Source: a virus (taxonomy: Duplodnaviria > Heunggongvirae > Uroviricota > Caudoviricetes). From it: 41,483 bases of DNA. The DNA lies in the IMG/VR virus record IMGVR_UViG_2565956725_000003, positions 1 to 41,483 of that record. One strand, given 5' to 3'. Below are positions 1-41,483 of the stretch, piece after piece. The first letter of the stretch is position 1. Each line of letters begins with the position of its first letter. The position numbers and the translations under genes were made by a program. The notes beneath the pieces were generated by a model, which was not told the origin of the DNA, made no database searches, and worked only from the letters and a program-made list of their open reading frames with translations.

Positions 1-516
1 ATGAAATTTAAAAAATGTCTTCTGCCTGTGGCAATGTTAGCGTCATTCACTCTGGCAGGATGCCAGTCAAATGCTGATGATCATGCTGCCGATGTTTATC
101 AAACCGATCAACTGAATACCAAACAAGAAACTAAAACCGTTAATATTATTTCCATTCTTCCCGCAAAAGTTGCCGTAGACAACGCCCAAAATAAACGGAA
201 CGCACAAGCCTTCGGCGCGCTTATTGGCGCTGTCGCTGGCGGTGTTATCGGCCACAACGTCGGGTCTGGCAGCAATTCCGGAACGACGGCAGGTGCAGTT
301 GGCGGCGGAGCTGTAGGCGCGGCAGCGGGTTCGATGGTGAATGATAAAACCTTAGTGGAAGGTGTTTCTTTAACATATAAGGAAGGCACCAAAGTGTATA
401 CCTCCACCCAGGTGGGTAAAGAGTGCCAGTTTACGACAGGTTTAGCCGTTGTTATTACCACGACGTATAACGAAACGCGTATTCAGCCAAATACCAAATG
501 TCCTGAAAAGAGCTAA
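1..516 (+). CDS. yfgH: glycine-zipper outer-membrane lipoprotein (host gene, candidate YfgH)
   Basis: 171-aa ORF with lipoprotein signal peptide and lipobox LAGC; Gly/Ala-rich segment GALIGAVAGGVIGHNVG. Symbol inferred from size and position next to a guaA 3'-end remnant, recalled not searched. Confidence 0.55.
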   Translation: MKFKKCLLPVAMLASFTLAGCQSNADDHAADVYQTDQLNTKQETKTVNIISILPAKVAVDNAQNKRNAQAFGALIGAVAGGVIGHNVGSGSNSGTTAGAVGGGAVGAAAGSMVNDKTLVEGVSLTYKEGTKVYTSTQVGKECQFTTGLAVVITTTYNETRIQPNTKCPEKS

Positions 517-531
517 TAATCAGGAGGAGTC

Positions 532-1071
532 ATGAAGAAAGTTTTTCTTTGCGCCATCTTAGCCTCCTTAAGCTATCCGGCTATCGCCTCATCATTGCAG
601 GATCAACTCTCGGCTGTCGCAGAAGCGGAACAGCAAGGTAAAAATGAAGAGCAAAGGCAGCATGACGAATGGGTCGCGGAGCGCAACAGGGAAATCCAGC
701 AAGAGAAGCAACGTCGCGCAAACGCCCAGGCCGCGGCTAATAAAAGAGCGGCAACGGCAGCGGCGAATAAGAAAGCTCGTCAGGATAAACTGGACGCCGA
801 AGCCACTGCGGACAAAAAACGCGATCAAAGTTATGAAGATGAGCTACGCAGCTTAGAGATTCAGAAACAAAAACTGGCGCTGGCGAAAGAAGAAGCCCGC
901 GTCAAGCGCGAAAACGAATTTATCGATCAGGAACTGAAGCACAAAGCTGCGCAAACCGATGTGGTGCAATCTGAAGCTGACGCAAACAGAAATATGACTG
1001 AAGGCGGTCGCGATCTGATGAAAAGCGTGGGTAAAGCAGAAGAGAACAAATCGGACAGCTGGTTTAACTAA
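532..1071 (+). CDS. yfgI: secreted charged coiled-coil protein (host gene, candidate YfgI)
   Basis: 179-aa ORF, RBS AGGAGG 6 nt upstream, N-terminal signal peptide, K/E/R/Q-rich body. Length matches recalled YfgI; symbol is tentative. Confidence 0.5.
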   Translation: MKKVFLCAILASLSYPAIASSLQDQLSAVAEAEQQGKNEEQRQHDEWVAERNREIQQEKQRRANAQAAANKRAATAAANKKARQDKLDAEATADKKRDQSYEDELRSLEIQKQKLALAKEEARVKRENEFIDQELKHKAAQTDVVQSEADANRNMTEGGRDLMKSVGKAEENKSDSWFN

Positions 1072-1110
1072 GCGATGTCAGTAACTTCAAGCCTATGATT
1101 CGTGAGTATA

Positions 1111-1142
1111 AAAAACCCTCTGTAGTAACAGAGGGTTTTGTT
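1111..1142. terminator. bidirectional rho-independent terminator
   Basis: AAAAA-CCCTCTGT-AGTA-ACAGAGGG-TTTTGTT: 8-bp GC-rich stem flanked by an A-tract and a T-tract, lying between the convergent 532..1071 gene and the guaA-like remnant. Confidence 0.75.
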
Positions 1143-1164
1143 CATTCATAGTGCAGGGTTCAAA

Positions 1165-3316: not shown

Positions 3317-6073
3317 TTAGCTACTTTCAAGCATTGCAAGACGTGATTCTATTTTTTCGATTCTTCTACGCAAATAAGCTGACTCAAGCCATAAACACTG
3401 GTCAGTACGGATACCCCACCTATTTCCAGCCTTGCAAACCAGAGTTCGCTCTTCTGTTTCGTATTCTTCTTCCATCTCAATTTCGACGCCATCCACAACT
3501 TTAGTGATCATCCTTACCGCCATCACTGGCGCGTATTTATCATCCCATTCATCGTAACAGAGAAGGCCAAATCTGGTTCCATCAATCCCATGCGCGAGGA
3601 AAGTGTCTCTCACTTGTTGTGCTATAACACCAAAATGCCAGCGGGCACCATCTCCCTTTTCCCTGACGGCATCAAGCCAGCGAAAAGCTACAATCCTGAT
3701 ATCTCCCCATGCATCCAGAATTGCATCACCTTCATAACCACGAGACATATACAAGCTGAGCTCACTTGTACTAATCGGTTCACTTTTTTCTCTACCATCT
3801 GATGTGTTTATCGAACCGTTCGCAGAATAAACCTGTGCCCATCTAAATGATGGTGCACCAAGAGATTTGCTGTTATCAATAATTGGTGAAAAATTACCTT
3901 TAATGGCAATATTTCCAGAGTCGCCGAATATATTAATAACTGCAGAGTCATCACCATGGTTTTTTACGCTTAAGTTTCTTGATGAAATATTTATATCTTT
4001 GTTATATCCACTAACATTAATCCATCTTTTACCATCAATGTGATACCCGTAAATATTTCCGTCTGATTGTTCGTCAGGTGACTCTCTAAGAACAATAGCA
4101 TCTGCTCCAGACGACCATTGTATTTTTGTATCTGTAGGCCTCCAGTTCTTTATAATGAACGAACCATCAGTAAACTCCGTTTTTATTTGTCTATTGTCTA
4201 CAAATGCGTCTCTTGGTTTAAACTCACTTGTGTTAACGCTGCTCTGAAGATCAGAAGCAAAAAATCTAAGATTTCCTGTATAACCCTGAGTCTCGGTCTG
4301 GTTATACGCAATCATAATTCCATTTTCAAACTCAGATGATGTTATTTTAACATCACGGCAATCACCAAAAATGCAATTTCCTTTATCAAATGTTGTTTGA
4401 GCTTTGAATTTATCAAACCTTAAATTACGAACAGGGAAACCATCAACCTCTAATGCAAAGGATGCAGGAAGGCCAAAGTATTCTGATGGCTTACCTGATG
4501 TATGATCAAGAGTAGTGGCTACTGTATTCTCAAAAACAGTCCCGCTAAAATTATTACCAATTGACGGAAACCTGATTACACTTATTGTACCTTGTATTTC
4601 AGGAGAAATACCAGATAGTGTGATGTTAGCTCCATCAAATGATGCATCTGAATACGTATATACTGATTCACTGCCAGCAATTTTAAACTGTTTAACTGAA
4701 GTTATTCTCATCGACTTTTTATGTTTAAATGTCACTGAGCTTTCAGTATTACTTACAAGATCAATCTGAGGGCTATTCCTTATCGCGATCCCTGACTGGA
4801 CATAAACGTTATTAAAGTGCGTTTTTTCAGGATTTCCCTTCATTGAAAGGCTCCCGTCATTTTCTGTCAGTAGTAGTCCTTTTACCCTCCAATAGCCGAC
4901 AATCTGTACGTTATCAATAACTGAATCACAGCTATCGTATACATGCAACCCTATATCCCAGTCATCACCCAATGAATAAGAATCAGGGTTATTGTATCCT
5001 TCAATACCATTTTTACTTACCATTATTCTCAGGTTGCGTAACTGTGATGCCCTGTTGATACTAACAGCTACGCTCATGGCTTTTGGTGTAGCAGGAGTAA
5101 CACCTACAGAATCTTCATTTGTAAACTCAGTGAACTTACAAGATATCCCTTCAACAATTTTAACTGGTCTTTCATTAGAGATGTTAAAAAAATATTTGTT
5201 TTTTTCTCCATCACCAGTAAATACAAGATGGGTTCCTTTACTCCAACTTTTTAATAATCTTTCAGGCGCTGGTCTATATGTATCCCAATAATCAATGCCA
5301 TCACCAATTAAAGACACTCCAGGAGGCACATCTATGTTCTTAGAAATCATCCATTTACCTGCAGGTATTCTAACGACACTTGCACCAGAATTTATCGCAT
5401 TAATTAACCATTCAGACGCATCAACTTCAAAATTTAATGCAGCATATCTTTGCTCAAACGGAACAAAATCAAGAGCGTTAACGTTATCCCGCATCTTATC
5501 CTGGAACGTTCGGTATACTGCTCCAGAACCATACTGAATAAACCAACCAAAACCACCAACAACTCCGGCGATTGCAGCATCAACATAATTGCGCATTGAT
5601 CGATTATTTACAGCATCCTGCTCAAGTGATGGATCTGCAAGGTTAGAAATTTTGTTTTGCTTTGCATCGTAATATTTTGCAAGCAAAGATGGTTTCATCA
5701 ATGCACGTCTGAACCATCCAAAACATTGCTGGATCAGCATCGTCAGATAGTCAAAGGCATCTTCATGCACCTCGGGGAAAAATTTTCCCTGATTACGAAG
5801 ATCAGTCTCCTGCACCACATCAAGCACACGATCTATCGTAATTCGCCATCCAGCAGCAAGCGGCGACGGAAGAACAACAGAACCGCCACTATAAGTGCCC
5901 GCCCCTGTTACCGTATAACCGGTATCCAGAACCAATTCTGTTACGTTCCCGTTCAGGTCAGACACCTGAACAACCAGGTCGGATTTTTTGAAAATACGGA
6001 AGGTATACGGAAATGATGTCGTAGCTCCGTTACCTGTGTATTCGTTGTGGTCAACTTCGGTTGAGACCGTCAT
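3317..6073 (-). CDS. tailspike/tail fibre with C-terminal intramolecular chaperone (peptidase S74-like)
   Basis: 918 aa; N-terminus resembles the T7 gp17-type adaptor domain; AT-rich central part; C-terminal roughly 150 aa resembles self-cleaving chaperone domains of endosialidase-type fibres; RBS GGAG. Confidence 0.8.
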   Translation of the reverse strand: MTVSTEVDHNEYTGNGATTSFPYTFRIFKKSDLVVQVSDLNGNVTELVLDTGYTVTGAGTYSGGSVVLPSPLAAGWRITIDRVLDVVQETDLRNQGKFFPEVHEDAFDYLTMLIQQCFGWFRRALMKPSLLAKYYDAKQNKISNLADPSLEQDAVNNRSMRNYVDAAIAGVVGGFGWFIQYGSGAVYRTFQDKMRDNVNALDFVPFEQRYAALNFEVDASEWLINAINSGASVVRIPAGKWMISKNIDVPPGVSLIGDGIDYWDTYRPAPERLLKSWSKGTHLVFTGDGEKNKYFFNISNERPVKIVEGISCKFTEFTNEDSVGVTPATPKAMSVAVSINRASQLRNLRIMVSKNGIEGYNNPDSYSLGDDWDIGLHVYDSCDSVIDNVQIVGYWRVKGLLLTENDGSLSMKGNPEKTHFNNVYVQSGIAIRNSPQIDLVSNTESSVTFKHKKSMRITSVKQFKIAGSESVYTYSDASFDGANITLSGISPEIQGTISVIRFPSIGNNFSGTVFENTVATTLDHTSGKPSEYFGLPASFALEVDGFPVRNLRFDKFKAQTTFDKGNCIFGDCRDVKITSSEFENGIMIAYNQTETQGYTGNLRFFASDLQSSVNTSEFKPRDAFVDNRQIKTEFTDGSFIIKNWRPTDTKIQWSSGADAIVLRESPDEQSDGNIYGYHIDGKRWINVSGYNKDINISSRNLSVKNHGDDSAVINIFGDSGNIAIKGNFSPIIDNSKSLGAPSFRWAQVYSANGSINTSDGREKSEPISTSELSLYMSRGYEGDAILDAWGDIRIVAFRWLDAVREKGDGARWHFGVIAQQVRDTFLAHGIDGTRFGLLCYDEWDDKYAPVMAVRMITKVVDGVEIEMEEEYETEERTLVCKAGNRWGIRTDQCLWLESAYLRRRIEKIESRLAMLESS

Positions 6074-25609: not shown

Positions 25610-25686
25610 GTGGCATTAGCTCAGTTGGACAGAGCAACCGCCTTCTAAGCGGTTGGTCGCAGGTTCGAATCCTGCATGCCACGCCA
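25610..25686 (+). tRNA. tRNA-Arg (anticodon UCU), phage-encoded argU-like
   Basis: Hand-folded cloverleaf with 7-bp acceptor stem, D and T arms, anticodon loop CTTCTAA, discriminator G and encoded CCA; core resembles argU. Confidence 0.9.
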
Positions 25687-32119: not shown

Positions 32120-32164
32120 TAAAAACCACATAAGACATGAAATCAATAGAGTTTATAATATTTT

Positions 32165-32181
32165 GTTACCTAACAGGTAAT
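32165..32181. promoter_or_regulatory. operator-like palindrome (copy 7)
   Basis: GTTACCTAACAGGTAAT, 62 bp from copy 6, in the gap downstream of the P-like gene. Confidence 0.55.
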
Positions 32182-32217
32182 TATCGAGGCGTAAAAAAAT
32201 GCGCTATCGCGCTGGTA

Positions 32218-32994
32218 TTACTTGATAAATCCTGCCGCCTTTCCCCGCCTGTATTCCTCCATCAGCCACTGCGCCGGTGTTATTCCCCCAAGGGTGGCGG
32301 CGTTAGGCATGCACCCGAAACTTCGCCCTGGTGGATGGTAAACGTCTCTCCCTGTGTCCGGAGGTGTACTCATGGGCTCTGGCTTTGCCTGTATGCTGAT
32401 CACCGGATCGGGTATCTGCTGTCCGGAAGCCACCTTTTTCGCCCAATCATCGAGCAGCCTGCGCGCGTGTTTCTCAACCTCACTCTCGCTAAGCTGGCGC
32501 TGATACATTGCACGACGGGTATCACATACGACCCAGTACATAACCGGATGCCGCCACGGGAATCTTTCGGGACCACCAGGATATAAACTTTTTTCCTTGC
32601 TGTACCGGTGAAACTCCGCCATCACATCGTCAATGGTGACGCCAAGAACCATCTTGCTGTCTTTGCACCACTTGATGAATTGCCCTGGCGACGGCCAGAA
32701 CGGAGATTCACTGGCGCGGGCGTGGCGCATACCAGCGTTAACCTGTTCCATTGTAGTGATCCCATTCTCCAGAAACGCAAGCATCCATTGCTTACGGAAT
32801 TCATTAAGTTTGTTCTGCTCCCTTATGGTCGAAACGCTTGCAGGAAATGCAGCCTGTAACTGGACAAATAGTTCATTGAAAATTCTAGCAACCTGCTCCT
32901 TTTTGCCATTGCTGTCACGCCGCTCTTCATGCACAGCAACACCATGCTCACGTAAGCGATCGTACTCATTGAGAAGTTCTGGAGTTGATTTCAT
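32218..32994 (-). CDS. replication protein P-like (helicase loader)
   Basis: 258 aa; block FPASVSTIREQNKLNEFRKQWMLAFLENGITTMEQVNAGMRHAR...SPGQF aligns closely with lambda P as recalled. Confidence 0.8.
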   Translation of the reverse strand: MKSTPELLNEYDRLREHGVAVHEERRDSNGKKEQVARIFNELFVQLQAAFPASVSTIREQNKLNEFRKQWMLAFLENGITTMEQVNAGMRHARASESPFWPSPGQFIKWCKDSKMVLGVTIDDVMAEFHRYSKEKSLYPGGPERFPWRHPVMYWVVCDTRRAMYQRQLSESEVEKHARRLLDDWAKKVASGQQIPDPVISIQAKPEPMSTPPDTGRDVYHPPGRSFGCMPNAATLGGITPAQWLMEEYRRGKAAGFIK

Positions 32995-33796
32995 CCCACA
33001 CCCCTTCTATCCAGTCAGTGTTATTCCAGTCAAGCTCATCGCTTTTCCCGGCATTTTTTGATTTTCCCCTGATATGATTTACGTGCCTGGCGAATTTTTG
33101 TTCCCACTGAACCTGCGTGAACACTTTGCCCTCAGCCATCCAGTAATCCCGGAATGCAGCAAGTTCAGCAGGTGTAAATTCCGGTTCCGGCAGGGCCGTT
33201 CCCCACAGCGCAGCACGCCGCCGAAAATCTGGCGACGGTAGCCAGCCATCTGTCATCGGAAATTTCCCGATGGGTTCACTCAGGCCATCCAGAAATTCAG
33301 GTTCTGCCACCTGCAACGGCGTACTGTTCGCTTCACTGGTCGGAGCACCCTCGCGCACGTGCGCTATGTGTGGGGTTTTATATATATCTTCCTCTTCCTC
33401 TTCCTCTGGTAACTCCTTTTGTAACGCTGTTGGCGTTACTTTTTGCGTTACTCGTTTTCGATGCTCTGCCACTCTTCTATTCGTAAGTGCACGTTTTTTC
33501 GATGATTCTCCATTATGTCGCTCAAAGTTTGGAAGAATTAGTTTGCCGTCATGATAAGCAAGCCATCCGACGCTAATGAGGGCGTCAGCAAATCCTGTAA
33601 TAAAAGCGAGTCTATCAAGTACTCCTTTTGTAACGCTGCCAGCGTTACCGTCTATTGTTTGCTGGTCAGCCCATGCCCATATACGAACCAGCTTTCCAAG
33701 AACAGCATCTGGATCAATACCCAGAATTTCTGCTATCTGAAAAATTTCAGGTTTATCAGGAGTGATAACTTCAACCTTAATCCAGCTGCTTGCCAT
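32966..33796 (-). CDS. replication initiator (O-like)
   Basis: 276 aa from the second ATG (RBS AGAGGGG); acidic linker; C-terminal DnaT-like segment; ori-like palindromes lie inside the gene. Confidence 0.65.
   Translation of the reverse strand: MASSWIKVEVITPDKPEIFQIAEILGIDPDAVLGKLVRIWAWADQQTIDGNAGSVTKGVLDRLAFITGFADALISVGWLAYHDGKLILPNFERHNGESSKKRALTNRRVAEHRKRVTQKVTPTALQKELPEEEEEEDIYKTPHIAHVREGAPTSEANSTPLQVAEPEFLDGLSEPIGKFPMTDGWLPSPDFRRRAALWGTALPEPEFTPAELAAFRDYWMAEGKVFTQVQWEQKFARHVNHIRGKSKNAGKSDELDWNNTDWIEGVWDEINSRTSQ
33412..33648. repeat. ori-like iterons: two 19-bp palindromes GTAACGC-N5-GCGTTAC within an 18-bp direct repeat
   Basis: 33421-33439 and 33630-33648, each preceded by ACTCCTTTT; extra half-site GCGTTAC at 33445-33451; A+T tract 33376-33389; all inside the O-like gene linker. 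Confidence 0.55.
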
Positions 33797-33989
33797 AGGT
33801 TTCCCCTCTTGCACTCTTTAGTGCGCAAGCAAATTCATTACGATGGCGGTTGGCGCTATTCATTGCACATTCAACACATGTTCCGTTCAGAACATACCTT
33901 TCAGAGAGATGGCCGTGACGGCACCGCTTTCCTGTGAAATAGCGATTTAACCCGGCTTTTGCGGCCTCCATTCTGGTTACTATCTTCAA
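33777..33989 (-). CDS. small zinc-ribbon-like protein
   Basis: About 70 aa, start ambiguous (TTG 33989 or ATG 33971); CRHGH...CVEC motif; between the cro-like and O-like genes. Confidence 0.4.
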   Translation of the reverse strand: MKIVTRMEAAKAGLNRYFTGKRCRHGHLSERYVLNGTCVECAMNSANRHRNEFACALKSARGETYGKQLD

Positions 33990-35260: not shown

Positions 35261-35422
35261 ATGCAGTGGAAAATCATCAACGGTTGGTACTGCGTTACTG
35301 CATGCGGATTCATGAGCTGGAAGTTCCGCACCTTACAGGAAGGCATTAAGTGGGCTTTCGTCAGCAAAGAAGCTCGCGATGTGGCCAACGATAACGAGAT
35401 ATGGGAGCAGGTTAGCAAATGA
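35261..35422 (+). CDS. small Trp-rich protein, first gene of the early operon (not in ORF track)
   Basis: 53 aa, RBS GAGGT, ATGA overlap with the next gene; preferred over the antisense 63-aa track ORF. Confidence 0.45.
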   Translation: MQWKIINGWYCVTACGFMSWKFRTLQEGIKWAFVSKEARDVANDNEIWEQVSK

Positions 35423-36453
35423 GTGAATTATCAATCATCGAAATCACACCAGATATGGCACCAAGAATTTACGTTGAAAAAGGACTGGAAAAGTTTCTTC
35501 AGCAGATCCGTGAAGGTGTTAATGAAGTGCCTGACATTAGCACAGACAAAGGCAGAAAGCGCATTGCATCTCTGGCTGCGAAGGTTTCAAGAAGTAAAAC
35601 AGCGGTAGAAAAACCAGGACGTGATTATCTGAAACGCCTGAAAGAACAGCCGAAAGTAGTTGAAGCAGAGTTACGACGCTTCGTAACCGAATGCGATCGG
35701 CTTCGTGATGAAGTACGCCGCCCACTCACCGAGTGGGAAAATGCTGAGAAATTACGCACCGAAGCACTACAACAACGCCTGACAAATTTGCGAGCACTAG
35801 CTGACGTGATCGATCTCTCCGGAAACTACTTGCCATCAACTGATATTCAGGAACGAATTCAAGAGGCTAAATCAGTAGCACTTGATGATAGTTGGCAGGA
35901 GTACGCAGCAGAAGCTGGAGTAGCCAAGGATTCAACCATCCAGAAACTGGAAGAATCACTCGCAGTAGCTCAAAAACGCGAGCATGAAGCCGCTGAGCTG
36001 GAGCGACTTCGCAAAGAAGCGGAGGAAAAAGCGCGCATTGAGCGAGAAGAGAATATTCGCCGGGAAGCTGCTGAACAGGCCAGGCTCGAAGCTGAACAAA
36101 AAGCGAAATCTGAAATTGAGGCTGCGGCACGCCTGGCGGCGGAAGAGAAAGCACGTGCTGAAGTAGCGGAACGTCAGCGAATTGAAGCAGAGCAGCGTGC
36201 ACAACGCGAAAAAGAAGAAGCCGTTGCCGAGGAACGCCGACGCCAAGAGGCGGCAGAAAAAGCCCGCCTTGACGAACAGAAGCGTATCGTCGACGAAGAA
36301 GCGCGCCGAGCTGCGGATAAAGAGCATCGCCGTACCGTTAACCGCAGAGTAATCGAAGATCTGATAGCCCAAGGCATTCCCGAAGAATTCGCGCAGAAAG
36401 CAATGTTGGCTATCGCTGGCGGCAAAGTGCAGGACGCGTATATCAAATATTGA
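35419..36453 (+). CDS. coiled-coil E/R/K/A-rich protein, hypothetical
   Basis: 344 aa with a long charged repetitive helical segment. Confidence 0.55.
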   Translation: MSELSIIEITPDMAPRIYVEKGLEKFLQQIREGVNEVPDISTDKGRKRIASLAAKVSRSKTAVEKPGRDYLKRLKEQPKVVEAELRRFVTECDRLRDEVRRPLTEWENAEKLRTEALQQRLTNLRALADVIDLSGNYLPSTDIQERIQEAKSVALDDSWQEYAAEAGVAKDSTIQKLEESLAVAQKREHEAAELERLRKEAEEKARIEREENIRREAAEQARLEAEQKAKSEIEAAARLAAEEKARAEVAERQRIEAEQRAQREKEEAVAEERRRQEAAEKARLDEQKRIVDEEARRAADKEHRRTVNRRVIEDLIAQGIPEEFAQKAMLAIAGGKVQDAYIKY

Positions 36454-36454
36454 G

Positions 36455-36760
36455 GTGGGTATGAACGTTAATCAGCAGAAAAATCTTCAAAAAATCATGC
36501 TGGCATTCGACAAAGACTACCGCCTGTCAGAACAGCTATATGACCGACAAGTTGAACTGATTGAGAGCATCCGACTTCATCAACTGTCCTCAACTTTCGA
36601 CGTTGTAACAGGCAAAGGCGTTCGTCAGGAAGTGCTGGAGGCTGCTAAAGACAGCCCTGAGTTCGAAGAACTGATGGATGCCTACCGGCGCGAGGCAATG
36701 GCAATTATCGCCCGCTGGGATCTGGCGGATCGGATTGATGGGCAGAGGGACGCGGCATGA
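36455..36760 (+). CDS. hypothetical protein
   Basis: 101 aa, RBS GAGGTGGG, coupled to the downstream exonuclease gene. Confidence 0.5.
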   Translation: MGMNVNQQKNLQKIMLAFDKDYRLSEQLYDRQVELIESIRLHQLSSTFDVVTGKGVRQEVLEAAKDSPEFEELMDAYRREAMAIIARWDLADRIDGQRDAA

Positions 36761-37656
36761 TGCAGAACGCTGGAATCATGGATAGAACAAAATACATCGG
36801 AGGAAGCGATGTTGCAGGGATTCTTGGAATTAGCCCATGGCGCACCCCGCTTGAGGTTTATCTGGATAAGGTCCAGTCACGTGTCAAACCAGTAGACCCA
36901 AGCAAGCAGAAAGTTTTCACGCGTGGCCAGCGTATGGAGCCATACGTAATAGACCTGCTTTCTGAGGAAACAGGGATGGAAATCGTTCATCGCGGAAACC
37001 GCTATATCCACCGTGATTACGATTTTATTGCAGCTGAGATCGATGCAGAAGCAGCGTCAGGCGAGAACATTGAGATCAAAACAGTTAGTCCGTTCAAAGC
37101 CAAAGAATGGGGAGAAATCCAGACAGATGCAATTCCTGTGCATTACACGGCCCAGGCCATGCACGGGTTGATGGTTACAAACAAACAGGTATGCGTTTTC
37201 GGTGTGCTTATCGGTGGCGACGACTTCCGAATCTATCGGGTTGAGCGTGATGAAGAAACTATCCAGGCGATCTTAGAAAAAGAAATCGCTTTCTGGGACC
37301 GAGTGAAAAATCTTAACCCGCCGGAAGCTACCAGCGTAAGCGATGTATCGCTGATGTTTGAGAAAGATGCCGGGACAAGTATCGAGGCTGACGGAAAGGC
37401 ACTCGCACTATTCAACGATCTACGAGACATGAAGTCACGCAGAAAATCACTGGAAGAAGAAATAGCTATATCAGAAGAGAAGCTGAAGATGTACATGCAA
37501 GAGCACTCAGTCCTGACCCTGGACGGAAAGCCGCTCTGCACATGGAAATCTCAGATCAGCAACAGATTCGACCAGAAGCTATTCCAGTCAGTACACCCTG
37601 AGTTATTCGAAAAATTCAAAACAACAACGACACAACGCGTCTTCAGAATGAAGTAA
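36757..37656 (+). CDS. YqaJ-type viral recombinase exonuclease
   Basis: 299 aa; N-terminal hallmark YIGGSDVAGILGISPWRTPLEVY; immediately upstream of recT. Confidence 0.8.
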   Translation: MMQNAGIMDRTKYIGGSDVAGILGISPWRTPLEVYLDKVQSRVKPVDPSKQKVFTRGQRMEPYVIDLLSEETGMEIVHRGNRYIHRDYDFIAAEIDAEAASGENIEIKTVSPFKAKEWGEIQTDAIPVHYTAQAMHGLMVTNKQVCVFGVLIGGDDFRIYRVERDEETIQAILEKEIAFWDRVKNLNPPEATSVSDVSLMFEKDAGTSIEADGKALALFNDLRDMKSRRKSLEEEIAISEEKLKMYMQEHSVLTLDGKPLCTWKSQISNRFDQKLFQSVHPELFEKFKTTTTQRVFRMK

Positions 37657-37665
37657 GGAGAAAAA

Positions 37666-38688
37666 ATGTCTATCAATGCACTTAAGGCAGCGGCTACCGG
37701 TAACCAAGTTGCACATCATAATGAGAAACCAACAACTCTGGCCGGACTTCTGGCAGACCCAAAAATTAAAGCTCAGATGGCTTTGGCACTTCCAAAGCAC
37801 ATGACAGCAGACCGTCTGGCGCGCATAGCAACCACAGAGATCCGAAAGGTTCCAAAACTTGCATCATGCGACCAAGCCAGCTTCCTGGGGGCAATCATGC
37901 AATGTGCCCAATTGGGTCTTGAACCAGGCGGAGCTCTTGGACACGCTTACCTGATACCGTTCGACAAACGCCAGAAAGTAAATGGAAGATGGGAAACCGT
38001 ATCTACAGAAGCACAGCTGATTATCGGCTATCGCGGAATGATTGACCTTGCCCGCCGCTCTGGGCAGATCCTGAGTATCTCGGCTCGTACCGTACATACA
38101 AACGACAAATTCAGCTACTCATACGGCCTGGAAGAAACGCTCGAGCATTTACCTTGCGAAACAGGTGACCGCGGAGAATTAACGCACGTTTACGCCGTTG
38201 CACGACTGAAAGATGGCGGAGTCCAATTTGAAGTTATGAGCCGGGCAGACGTTGAGAAAGTTCGTGCACTGAGCAAAGCCGGTAGCAGTGGCCCATGGGT
38301 TGATCACTTCGATGAGATGGCTAAAAAAACAGTAATTCGCCGACTGTTCAAATATCTTCCTGTTTCTATTGAAATGCAGAAGGCTGTTGTTATGGATGAG
38401 CGCGCTGAAGCTGGACTTAGCCAAGATAACGCAGCTGTTATCACTGGTGAATATTCCGTAGTTGACGATGAGCGTCAACACCTGTCGCCAATTTCAGATT
38501 CAGAACGAGAAGAAGCTCGAGAATATATCATCGCGATACTTAATAGCCTGGATCCATCTGCTGAAGATGCAAAAACGATGTTCAAGCGCGCTGAAAATGA
38601 GATTAACACCATGGCTGAAAAGCTCGGTGATGAATATCACCAAAAATTCATGATGACGCTTAACGATATGCGTCCAGAATTCGAGTAA
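37666..38688 (+). CDS. recT: RecT-family single-strand annealing protein
   Basis: 340 aa; long blocks near-identical to Rac RecT as recalled (RIATTEIRKVP, LGLEPGGALGHAYLIPF, LIIGYRGMIDLARRSGQI, THVYAVARLKDGG, MAKKTVIRRLFKYLPVSIEMQ). Confidence 0.9.
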   Translation: MSINALKAAATGNQVAHHNEKPTTLAGLLADPKIKAQMALALPKHMTADRLARIATTEIRKVPKLASCDQASFLGAIMQCAQLGLEPGGALGHAYLIPFDKRQKVNGRWETVSTEAQLIIGYRGMIDLARRSGQILSISARTVHTNDKFSYSYGLEETLEHLPCETGDRGELTHVYAVARLKDGGVQFEVMSRADVEKVRALSKAGSSGPWVDHFDEMAKKTVIRRLFKYLPVSIEMQKAVVMDERAEAGLSQDNAAVITGEYSVVDDERQHLSPISDSEREEAREYIIAILNSLDPSAEDAKTMFKRAENEINTMAEKLGDEYHQKFMMTLNDMRPEFE

Positions 38689-38737
38689 CCACCACCGCGG
38701 CGCCACGCACGCCGCACTGCAACCAAGAGAGGTATTT

Positions 38738-38986
38738 ATGAAAGGTGCATTAGGTAAGAAGGAACTCCTGGCGGTGGTGCCACTGTCATGGAGCACTATC
38801 GACCGTATGGAGCGCGCAGGGGAATTTCCTAAACGCTGGTATATCACTGACAAACGCTGCGCATGGAACCGTGACGAAGTTGAGCGTTGGCTTGATGAAC
38901 GTCAGGCAGCAAGCCCGGCAGAGTTCCAGGGTAAAAAGCCTCCTGTTCAGCAACGTGTATATCGTCCTGTGAGCAACGCTGCATGA
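38738..38986 (+). CDS. AlpA-family HTH protein (candidate excisionase)
   Basis: 82 aa; pattern LLAVVPLSWSTIDRMERAGEFPKR...RCAWNRDEVERWLDER resembles AlpA/TorI-type factors. Confidence 0.5.
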   Translation: MKGALGKKELLAVVPLSWSTIDRMERAGEFPKRWYITDKRCAWNRDEVERWLDERQAASPAEFQGKKPPVQQRVYRPVSNAA

Positions 38987-39095
38987 GTGCGCTGCTAAGG
39001 CACTGGAGCAAATGGTCAGGATGGTACTTATTCCTGGCCTCTGTTTCAGCATGGCTTTATCTGCTGGCATTAATTTTCAGAGAGGGTTGGATTAA

Positions 39096-39395
39096 GTGAG
39101 AAAGTTAAGCCGACTTGAAAAATATCACATGAACAAGGTTTCAATGCGCAGCCCTTCAAAGGTTGTTGCCGTTACTCCTGCGGCGATAGAGATCGAAAAA
39201 CGCGCGATTGAAAGAGAGAAAAAAGGGCAGTTCCGCATTGCCGCCCACCTTTGGCTTCAGTGTATGGATGTTGCTTCTGGTGATGTTGAACGTGCAAGGA
39301 TCGCGGTTCGCAGGGACCAATGTATCACAAAAGGTAACGGCCTTCGCCGTGGCGACTATAGCGGCATAGGATGTTGTGGGGTGGTTTATGACTAA
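39096..39395 (+). CDS. hypothetical small regulator-like protein
   Basis: 99 aa from GTG 39096; start uncertain; overlaps the methyltransferase start. Confidence 0.35.
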   Translation: MRKLSRLEKYHMNKVSMRSPSKVVAVTPAAIEIEKRAIEREKKGQFRIAAHLWLQCMDVASGDVERARIAVRRDQCITKGNGLRRGDYSGIGCCGVVYD

Positions 39396-40038
39396 GAAAT
39401 ACACACTAATCTATGCAGATCCCCCCTGGGCATACCGGGACAAAACCACAGATGGTAATCGCGGTGCCGGTTTTAAATATCCGGTTATGAGTGTGCTGGA
39501 TATCTGCCGCCTTCCTGTGTGGGATTTGGCCGGTGAAAACTGTCTGTTGGCCATGTAGTGGGTGCCAACACAACCACTCGAAGCACTAAAAGTTGTTGAA
39601 GCCTGGGGATTCCGTCTGATGACCATGAAGGGCTTCACGTGGATAAAATGTGGTAGTCGACAACCAGATAAACTGGTTATGGGGATGGGACACATGACTC
39701 GCGCCAACAGTGAAGATTGCCTGTTTGCGGTAAAGGGAAAACTACCTCCGCGCATTAATGCAGGTATCGTTCAGTCATTTACCGCACCGCGGCTTGAGCA
39801 TTCAAGAAAACCAGATGTCGTTCGTGAAAAACTTGTGCAATTGTTAGGCGATGTTTCTCGCATTGAACTGTTCGCCCGCCAGTCGTCTCATGGCTTCGAT
39901 GTTTGGGGTAATCAGTGCGAAGACCCGGCAGTACAACTACACCCAGGATACGCGTTGGATATTGGCGGATTAACAAATGCATTCAGCAATGCTCCGCTGT
40001 CACCAACAGACAACCAGGGGCGGGAGCGTGCAGCATGA
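39388..40038 (+). pseudogene. MT-A70-type DNA adenine methyltransferase interrupted by an in-frame amber codon
   Basis: ATG 39388 gives MTKKYTLIYADPPWAY (DPPW motif); in-frame TAG at 39556-39558; the same frame continues WVPTQPLEAL...EHSRKP to 40038. Confidence 0.65.
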
Positions 40039-40229
40039 ACAGGGCATCACCAGCAGATTTAAGGAAATGCCTTGAAACTGCAAACATGCTTGCACACAGC
40101 GGGATCAGGTTTGTTCCAATTCCCGCTGTCACTGATGCTGAATTTGCAACACTGTCAGCAATATTCGAAAACAAAATTGAATCACTGGCAGCAGAAGTAG
40201 AGATGGAAGAAAATCAGCAGAACTATTAA
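40035..40229 (+). CDS. DUF1382-like small phage protein
   Basis: 64 aa from internal ATG with ATGA overlap to the methyltransferase stop; GIRFVPIPAVTDAEFATL segment. Confidence 0.45.
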   Translation: MNRASPADLRKCLETANMLAHSGIRFVPIPAVTDAEFATLSAIFENKIESLAAEVEMEENQQNY

Positions 40230-40232
40230 ACG

Positions 40233-41483
40233 TTATTCCCCCGCCATCCACTTCTCAAACTTCGACGGGGAGAACGGAATCAGATCCGTATGCTCCCCGT
40301 TAATCCAGGAATCAATCATATCGGCCCACTGCTGCAACATGTAGGCGCGCTGTCTGGCGTATTCCGCTTTGTTATATACGGCGCGCACACCTTTCTGCTC
40401 ATGTGCCAGAGCCTTTTCAATCCAGTCTGAAGGATAACCAGCCTCATGCAACAACGTACTGGCTGTACGGCGCATATCGTGTACGGTGAAGCCCTGAATA
40501 TGCTCACCATCTTCATTTATTATTTTCACCGTTCTGTCGATCAGAGAGTTCAGCGCGGCATTAGATAATGGCTTCCGGAAATTGTAACGCCCAGGAACAA
40601 GATATTCACTTCCACCAGCGCACATCTGCAACCCAACCAATATATCCTGTGCCTGTTTAGGCAGGTAAATAACGTGCGCCCGGCTTCCCTTCATGCGGTC
40701 TGAAGGAATTGTCCATGTCCATTTTTTAAAATCTATTTCATCCCACGTTGCATTGGTGAATTCGCCTTTACGAACCATAGTGATAAGCACCAGCTTTAAA
40801 GCCATTTTCATAGTGCCCATAGCACCAATGGCATCCAGCGTGCGGAAGAACAGGCCAATTTCTTCTGGTGTCAGTGTTCGCTCTCGTGGTTTAAATATGG
40901 CGATAGACGAAGGTTTAATGTCAGCCGCAGGATTAAACAAACCATGACCACGGTCATTGGCGTGACGGTATACGCTGCTGATGATCTCCCTGGCCTGTAC
41001 TGCTGTTGCCCGACCACCGCGTTCGACAATCCGGTCACACAAATCACGAACCATCGATGTGGTAATTTCAGCCATCATTTTGTTGCCAAGAACCGGAAGT
41101 ATGTCACGGTCGATCACCGCCTGCTTCATTGCGCGGGTACTGTCAGCCAGGATGACGTGTTTCATATAACTGTCGGTATGTACCGCAAACGTCTCGGCAC
41201 CACGAATCTTTTTGATACCGTCACGTTTAGCCGCAGCCGGCGACTGGCCTGCTTTAAGCAGCTTCTTTGCAGCAATCAGTTCTTCTCGCGCTTCTGCCAG
41301 GCTGATACCGTCACGCCCATACTGCCCGATTACCAGTGTTTCGCGGCGACCGTTGATACGGTAGTCATAGCGAAACGAGACCGTGCCTGACGTAAGCACA
41401 GCTACATACAGCCCGTCACGATCGGAGACCTTATACAGTTTGTCCTGCGGCTTGAGGTTTTTTAATTTTGTATCGGTAAGCAC
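40233..41483 (-). CDS. int: tyrosine integrase (P4/CP4-57-like), 5' end at window edge
   Basis: 416 aa; arm-binding N-terminus LTDTKLKNLKPQDKLYKVSDRDGLYVAV; C-terminal catalytic region with HDMRRT and RAVYNKAEY; first codon at the edge is GTG so the true start may lie just outside. Confidence 0.9.
   Translation of the reverse strand: MLTDTKLKNLKPQDKLYKVSDRDGLYVAVLTSGTVSFRYDYRINGRRETLVIGQYGRDGISLAEAREELIAAKKLLKAGQSPAAAKRDGIKKIRGAETFAVHTDSYMKHVILADSTRAMKQAVIDRDILPVLGNKMMAEITTSMVRDLCDRIVERGGRATAVQAREIISSVYRHANDRGHGLFNPAADIKPSSIAIFKPRERTLTPEEIGLFFRTLDAIGAMGTMKMALKLVLITMVRKGEFTNATWDEIDFKKWTWTIPSDRMKGSRAHVIYLPKQAQDILVGLQMCAGGSEYLVPGRYNFRKPLSNAALNSLIDRTVKIINEDGEHIQGFTVHDMRRTASTLLHEAGYPSDWIEKALAHEQKGVRAVYNKAEYARQRAYMLQQWADMIDSWINGEHTDLIPFSPSKFEKWMAGE

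Follow-up and report, generated by a model that had tools for sequence, protein, structure and literature searches.

Class beta/MT-A70 methyltransferases carry catalytic motif IV in the N-terminal part of the protein and the AdoMet-binding part at the C-terminal side (PMC7544214). Among the phage enzymes of this type, M.EcoPA8orf6770P forms a complex with PNB-2, encoded by the gene upstream, and in that state has 16S rRNA as its preferred substrate, and M.EcoGV, when overproduced, methylates DNA at GATC (PMC10810198). The Stx-phage enzyme raises the spontaneous induction of its prophage, and phiPA2, in which the enzyme is naturally knocked out by IS629, shows lower spontaneous induction (PMC10810198). 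In phage phiV10, the corresponding product, gp33 (YP_512288.1), is annotated as "DNA methyltransferase" by motif only, and a literature search found no characterization of its activity.

Here, we analyze a stretch of 41,483 nucleotides (IMG/VR record IMGVR_UViG_2565956725_000003, positions 1 to 41,483), referred to throughout as the window, in which a gene of this type is interrupted by a stop codon. An earlier note, made from the sequence alone, had described an MT-A70 reading frame that is whole except for a TAG at 39556–39558 and had offered two explanations for it: either a prophage methylase gene was recently knocked out by a nonsense mutation, or the gene is expressed by read-through or by re-initiation at a GTG two codons past the stop. 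The first of these is supported by the analysis that follows, in which the TAG proves to stand for TGG at an invariant Trp, the homologs are intact, and the carriers of the allele are identical. We put at roughly 0.88 the probability that the locus is a lineage-specific, recent W57* pseudogene allele of a prophage MT-A70 gene, and neither a recoding site nor a split gene.

Results

A phiV10-like prophage at guaA

The window is a stretch of E. coli chromosome in which a phiV10/epsilon15-like (Uetakevirus) prophage follows host genes, and the prophage is integrated between yfgI and guaA. The host genes at the start of the window encode a glycine-zipper 2TM lipoprotein (1–516) and a DUF5384 protein (532–1071), and the phage–host junction lies near 1160, where collinearity with KM389360.1 starts (window 1–1160; L002 7444–7633). 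Toward the other end, the genes follow the phiV10 order: AlpA, 38-aa membrane protein, PerC, MT-A70, DUF1382, integrase. The PerC-family gene (39096–39395, plus strand; PF06069, 30.1 bits; phrog_868) lies immediately upstream of the methyltransferase, whose start its stop overlaps by 8 nt. Downstream, the ATG of the DUF1382 gene (40035–40229, plus strand; PF07131, 104.6 bits) overlaps the TGA of the methyltransferase in the sequence ATGA (40035–40038). A P4-type integrase gene (40233–41483, minus strand; 99.5% identity to the phiV10 integrase, 416 aa) marks the end of the prophage, and guaA adjoins it in related loci.

Of the phiV10 proteins, 38 could be aligned to the window, and the methyltransferase alone among them meets an in-frame stop; those for head, tail, terminase, and lysis align over their full length at about 81 to 100% identity. 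Because the phiV10 proteins align with no other in-frame stop, the rest of the prophage looks functional.

Several other features of the prophage were recorded alongside the methyltransferase. An ORF of 344 aa (35419–36453, plus strand) lies between the homologs of phiV10 p39 and p38. Neither phiV10 nor KM389360.1 has it, and in the latter the positions equivalent to window 35407 and 36461 almost adjoin each other. Along its whole length the ORF matches phrog_1376, a family of unknown function, and it gave no hit to Pfam or PADLOC; it is a possible moron or accessory gene of the early-left operon. In the tail-fiber gene (3317–6073, minus strand), only the first ~162 residues are phiV10-like (68% identity), and the divergent remainder has a Peptidase_S74 intramolecular-chaperone domain at its end. 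A tblastn search of the window found no homolog of the phiV10 O-acetyltransferase (oac) and, together with the divergence of the tail fiber, this suggests that the host-range and seroconversion module has been swapped relative to phiV10. The tRNA-Arg(TCT) gene (25610–25686, plus strand) lies between the terminase and portal regions, where the phiV10 RefSeq record lists no tRNA. Within the replication genes (32137–33814), the DnaT-like initiator of phiV10 gives only a partial match at 45% identity and the P-like protein is 81% identical; by these comparisons, the window and phiV10 have different replication modules. The recombination module (36757–38688, plus strand) encodes a separate YqaJ-type exonuclease (299 aa) and RecT (340 aa), whereas phiV10 has a single annotated RecE-RecT fusion ORF and E. 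coli MLI121 has a PD-(D/E)XK nuclease with a shorter RecT, a difference that is a mosaic module exchange.

A single amber codon divides the MT-A70 reading frame

The MT-A70 reading frame runs on the plus strand from the ATG at 39388–39390 to the TGA at 40036–40038 (216 codons, 651 bp). Its single internal stop, the TAG at 39556–39558, is codon 57, in the context ...ENCLLAM*WVPTQP..., and lies in frame with the ATG at a spacing of 168 nt, or 56 codons. Sequence and translation both bear out the description in the earlier note of a frame that is otherwise continuous, with DPPW 5′ and EHSRKP 3′ of the stop and a GTG (39562) two codons past it. The DPPW of catalytic motif IV occupies codons 11–14 (39418–39429) and falls within the N-terminal fragment (39388–39558, plus strand), which consists of codons 1–56 and the premature TAG. 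The remainder of the frame (39559–40038, plus strand), consisting of codons 58–216 and the TGA, contains LEHSRKP and the ELFAR...WGNQ regions, and its translation is no longer provided by the native start.

With codon 57 read as Trp, the repaired protein matches the Pfam MT-A70 profile PF05063 over positions 1–172 of 172 with 76.5 bits, the curated gathering cutoff being 23.9 bits. The 56-aa N-terminal fragment matches profile positions 1–48 with 17.5 bits, below the cutoff, and the 158-aa C-terminal fragment covers positions 61–172 only. Motif IV and the C-terminal AdoMet-binding part are not found together in one polypeptide, as the TAG at codon 57 divides them. Since enzymes of this class have motif IV toward the N terminus and the AdoMet-binding part toward the C terminus, the stop parts two halves, each of which would be useless alone.

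The TAG replaces an invariant tryptophan

Among intact alleles, the nearest is that of E. coli MLI121 (99.2% identity), which has TGG at codon 57 and differs from the window at one position in the surrounding 121 nt, namely 39557. Taking relatives at 96–99% identity as a guide to the ancestral state, we infer that the TAG (39556–39558, plus strand) is a TGG after one G>A transition at 39557 (W57*, G39557A). The exact Trp-bearing ancestor protein is absent from a collection of 15 billion proteins, and about 540 complete E. coli records contain a gene that is 95–99% identical.

The same residue emerges from a wider alignment of the repaired protein with 27 homologs at 59–96% identity, drawn from Escherichia, Salmonella, Klebsiella, Serratia, Pantoea, Photorhabdus, and other genera. 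Across the 28 sequences, W57 is invariant and W58 nearly invariant; within DPPW, the Trp is invariant, and conservation is 90% or higher at the three residues before it. W57 is aligned to the conserved Trp of "FIFVWAI" in the solved structure of the Tetrahymena MT-A70 protein MTA1 (PDB 7f4r), and a structure model of the intact homolog P0047, of low confidence (mean pLDDT 58), predicts a strand at residues 52–56, just before W57. All 27 homologs are single uninterrupted proteins of about 190–270 aa, and the alignment shows the gene family to be strongly conserved across Enterobacterales. Alignment with intact homologs, by which the earlier note had proposed to find the replaced residue, thus returns the invariant Trp57, with TGG changed to TAG; the natural two-gene arrangement that it had named as evidence to the contrary was not seen in the homologs, all of which are single ORFs.

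The TAG allele is inherited within one prophage lineage

Exact lookup of truncated protein products located the TAG allele in at least eight independent records, and the 651-bp gene is identical in all of them. They include KM389360.1 (Escherichia phage Phi05_1387 B), an induced-phage contig that is circularly joined; OZ039293.1, a complete chromosome that matches 4865 b of the window at 100% identity; and five Logan assemblies (SRR21826808, SRR8961006, SRR36243770, SRR22111752, and ERR8083332; L004 and L006–L009). By locus, the identical allele is found in L002, L004, L005, and L006–L009. Gene callers presented with this stop call an ORF of 139 aa (MTMKGF...; 39619–40038, plus strand) that has a weak Shine-Dalgarno (SD) sequence and does not contain DPPW. 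Its product (P0031) is on record as ESK17375.1, listed as a "hypothetical protein" for E. coli UMEA 3290-1, and the assembly collection indexes it in 76 blocks. The TAG allele is also rare: exact-pattern scans for it gave no match in species-representative genomes, IMG/VR, or JGI metagenomes, and its 61-mer occurs in none of the 479 matching complete RefSeq E. coli records. A literature search on the Phi05_1387 record (KM389360.1) found nothing.

Three prophage haplotypes bear the TAG: that of the window and L005; that of KM389360.1 and L004, with ten common substitutions in 36709–37896; and that of L007 and L008, with one common substitution at 39278. The ten substitutions that divide the two main haplotypes all fall in this interval, which overlaps the recombination module (36757–38688). 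Because the carriers are distributed over three haplotypes, the mutation is real and inherited within one prophage lineage, a lineage that has split into at least three haplotypes since, and it is old enough to have come to lie on slightly diverged or recombined backbones. It is nevertheless recent, because the 651-bp gene is identical in every carrier. The wide spread of the allele is compatible with neutral hitchhiking in a successful clone, or with tolerated or beneficial loss.

Expression across the stop

The native ATG at 39388 forms an anti-SD duplex of −7.7 kcal/mol. The GTG at 39562–39564 (plus strand), proposed in the earlier note as a re-initiation codon, has no Shine-Dalgarno pairing (−1.5 kcal/mol, where the background of the window averages −1.9). 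The ATG that comes next, at 39619, is preceded by a modest SD (−5.5 kcal/mol) and gives a product without DPPW. The window contains no suppressor tRNA, its sole tRNA being the Arg(TCT) at 25610–25686, and no stimulatory RNA structure was detected around or after the TAG, where 101 nt fold no better than shuffles (z = +1.25). Conservation of the stop in relatives, a hallmark of read-through, was not observed: the TAG is in 0 of 479 complete RefSeq E. coli records, diverse homologs all have Trp at this position, and the stop occurs in a single allele whose copies do not differ from one another. Nor is there a sign of a naturally split methyltransferase, as the homologs are single ORFs, the other broken versions have different lesions, and the GTG has no SD. 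General amber reassignment in the phage was rejected, as no other prophage gene has an in-frame stop. A new promoter made by the G>A change was also rejected, as no promoter-like site was found in 38600–40400.

These results bear on whether the enzyme could still be made in trace amounts, either by near-cognate read-through of the UAG or by re-initiation at GTG 39562 followed by reassembly of the 56-aa and 158-aa fragments. Short-range termination-reinitiation occurs in bacteria, and the GTG lies only 3 nt past the TAG; this GTG is the one without an SD, and it would initiate a product from which both Trp57 and the nearly invariant Trp58 are dropped. Read-through, for which the window offers neither a suppressor tRNA nor a stimulatory structure, would mostly insert a residue other than Trp at the invariant position 57. 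The undamaged sequence on either side of the TAG and the identity of the frame in all carriers would fit a gene that is still expressed, but a mutation this young, with zero divergence among its carriers, is enough to account for the intact flanks, and the stop is missing from all relatives examined. We therefore consider such leaky expression very unlikely, and the second explanation in the earlier note finds no support in suppressor tRNA, SD, RNA structure, or conservation of the stop.

Other null alleles and the question of selection

Broken versions of the gene exist elsewhere. In L012 (SRR19732832 contig, 1501–2151), which has a different haplotype, codon 58 is changed from TGG to TGA (W58*), the codon next to that hit in the window. 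L010 (1513–2116) and L011 have a 47-bp deletion with a frameshift after codon 113, and the product of this allele (P0004) is indexed in 36 blocks. The W58* 61-mer was found in none of 390 matching complete genomes. Judged from their lesions, W58* and the 47-bp deletion are putative null alleles independent of W57*, in phiV10-like prophages. Null alleles of this gene recur yet stay rare, as expected of ordinary mutational decay in an accessory gene that is on the whole conserved.

A different account would have the loss selected: knocking out the methyltransferase would benefit the lysogen, for example through less spontaneous induction, and this would explain both the spread of the TAG allele and the recurrence of nulls. 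The precedent is the IS629 knock-out of the homologous phiPA2 enzyme, which lowers spontaneous induction (PMC10810198), but the window has no PNB-2 and a different C-terminal tail, so the Stx-phage phenotype may not transfer. Similarly, at least three independent null alleles occur in phiV10-like prophages and the TAG allele is present in many assemblies on three haplotypes, but nulls are rare among complete RefSeq records (0 of 479 for the W57* 61-mer and 0 of 390 for that of W58*) and the gene is strongly conserved across Enterobacterales. We regard selected loss as highly improbable. Together with leaky expression, it shares the probability that the W57* pseudogene leaves, and we find positive evidence for neither at this locus. 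An artifact of sequencing or assembly, with TGG as the true sequence, can be dismissed, for a single-base difference is an error type possible in one assembly but the same base is present in at least eight independent records, including KM389360.1, OZ039293.1, and five SRA runs.

Discussion

In the W57* pseudogene, the G>A change at 39557 has converted TGG to TAG, and translation from the native ATG ends after 56 residues, yielding a peptide that has the DPPW loop and nothing else of the fold. For the 159 codons that remain, the GTG offers no ribosome-binding site, and products begun further 3′, such as that of the 139-aa ORF, would be devoid of the catalytic motif. Because the 56-aa peptide is incomplete, the GTG has no ribosome-binding site, and the later products do not contain the motif, the enzyme would be lost, or made at a trace level at best by background read-through. 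From the reading frame, we infer a loss of methyltransferase activity, together with any phenotype that may follow from it. The mutation may also be felt downstream, as ~480 nt 5′ of DUF1382 would go untranslated and expression of DUF1382 could go down through lost translational coupling and possibly Rho-dependent polarity. DUF1382 probably depends on translation of the methyltransferase and its expression is probably reduced by the TAG, because its start lies inside the methyltransferase stop (ATGA).

The TAG allele is a predicted natural null mutant of the prophage MT-A70 gene, and its significance is small. As a kind of feature it is not new, since natural nulls of this enzyme type are already documented (IS629 in phiPA2; PMC10810198). 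Its value is practical: strains with the TAG and their TGG revertants would make a ready isogenic pair for addressing the substrate of the phiV10-type enzyme and its effect on induction. For annotation, the locus should be flagged as a pseudogene, the 139-aa remnant being at present annotated as a "hypothetical protein." One may speculate that knock-out of the enzyme, or its strong throttling by rare UAG read-through, is non-neutral, alters the behavior of the lysogen, for example through less spontaneous induction as in the phiPA2/phiPA8 pair, and has been favored in this E. coli lineage, in which case W58*, the 47-bp deletion, and IS629 would be parallel events; we think this unlikely.

Comparison with known systems

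Among characterized enzymes, the nearest relative is the Stx2a-phage enzyme of the M.EcoPA8orf6770P (phiPA8 gp5)/M.EcoGV type; its representative PA28 gp05 and the window protein have 83% identity over residues 1–187. The two share DPPW, a DUF1382 gene downstream, and a place near the integrase end of the prophage. Identity ends at residue 187, however, and the C-terminal ~25–30 residues are unrelated. The gene upstream also differs, being PNB-2 in the Stx phage and an unrelated PerC-family gene in the window; the PerC-family protein gave no alignment with the PNB-2-like gp06 of phage PA28, and its candidacy as a PNB-2 partner was rejected for want of similarity to gp06. The window thus has neither the upstream PNB-2 gene nor the matching C-terminal tail of the M.EcoPA8orf6770P–PNB-2 holoenzyme. 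Because the tail differs and PNB-2 is replaced by PerC, the substrate, whether DNA or rRNA, is not transferable from the Stx-phage enzyme, and "DNA adenine methyltransferase," the customary annotation for the window gene, is an assumption. The manner of the knock-out differs as well, by insertion of IS629 in the phiPA2 enzyme and by a point nonsense mutation in the window.

More distant relatives are the eukaryotic PF05063 proteins METTL3-METTL14 and ciliate MTA1c, and the repaired protein matches MTA1 with E = 5e-13 and METTL3 with E = 2e-5. The eukaryotic MT-A70 enzymes act as heterodimers, whereas the window protein is a small stand-alone phage protein of 216 aa, broken at codon 57. The counterpart in phiV10 is gp33, which occupies the same position in the module and has 96% protein identity over all 216 codons. 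This gene and its orthologs, which occur in Uetakevirus phages and in E. coli prophages inserted at guaA, have no such interruption: their codon 57 is TGG, where the window has TAG.
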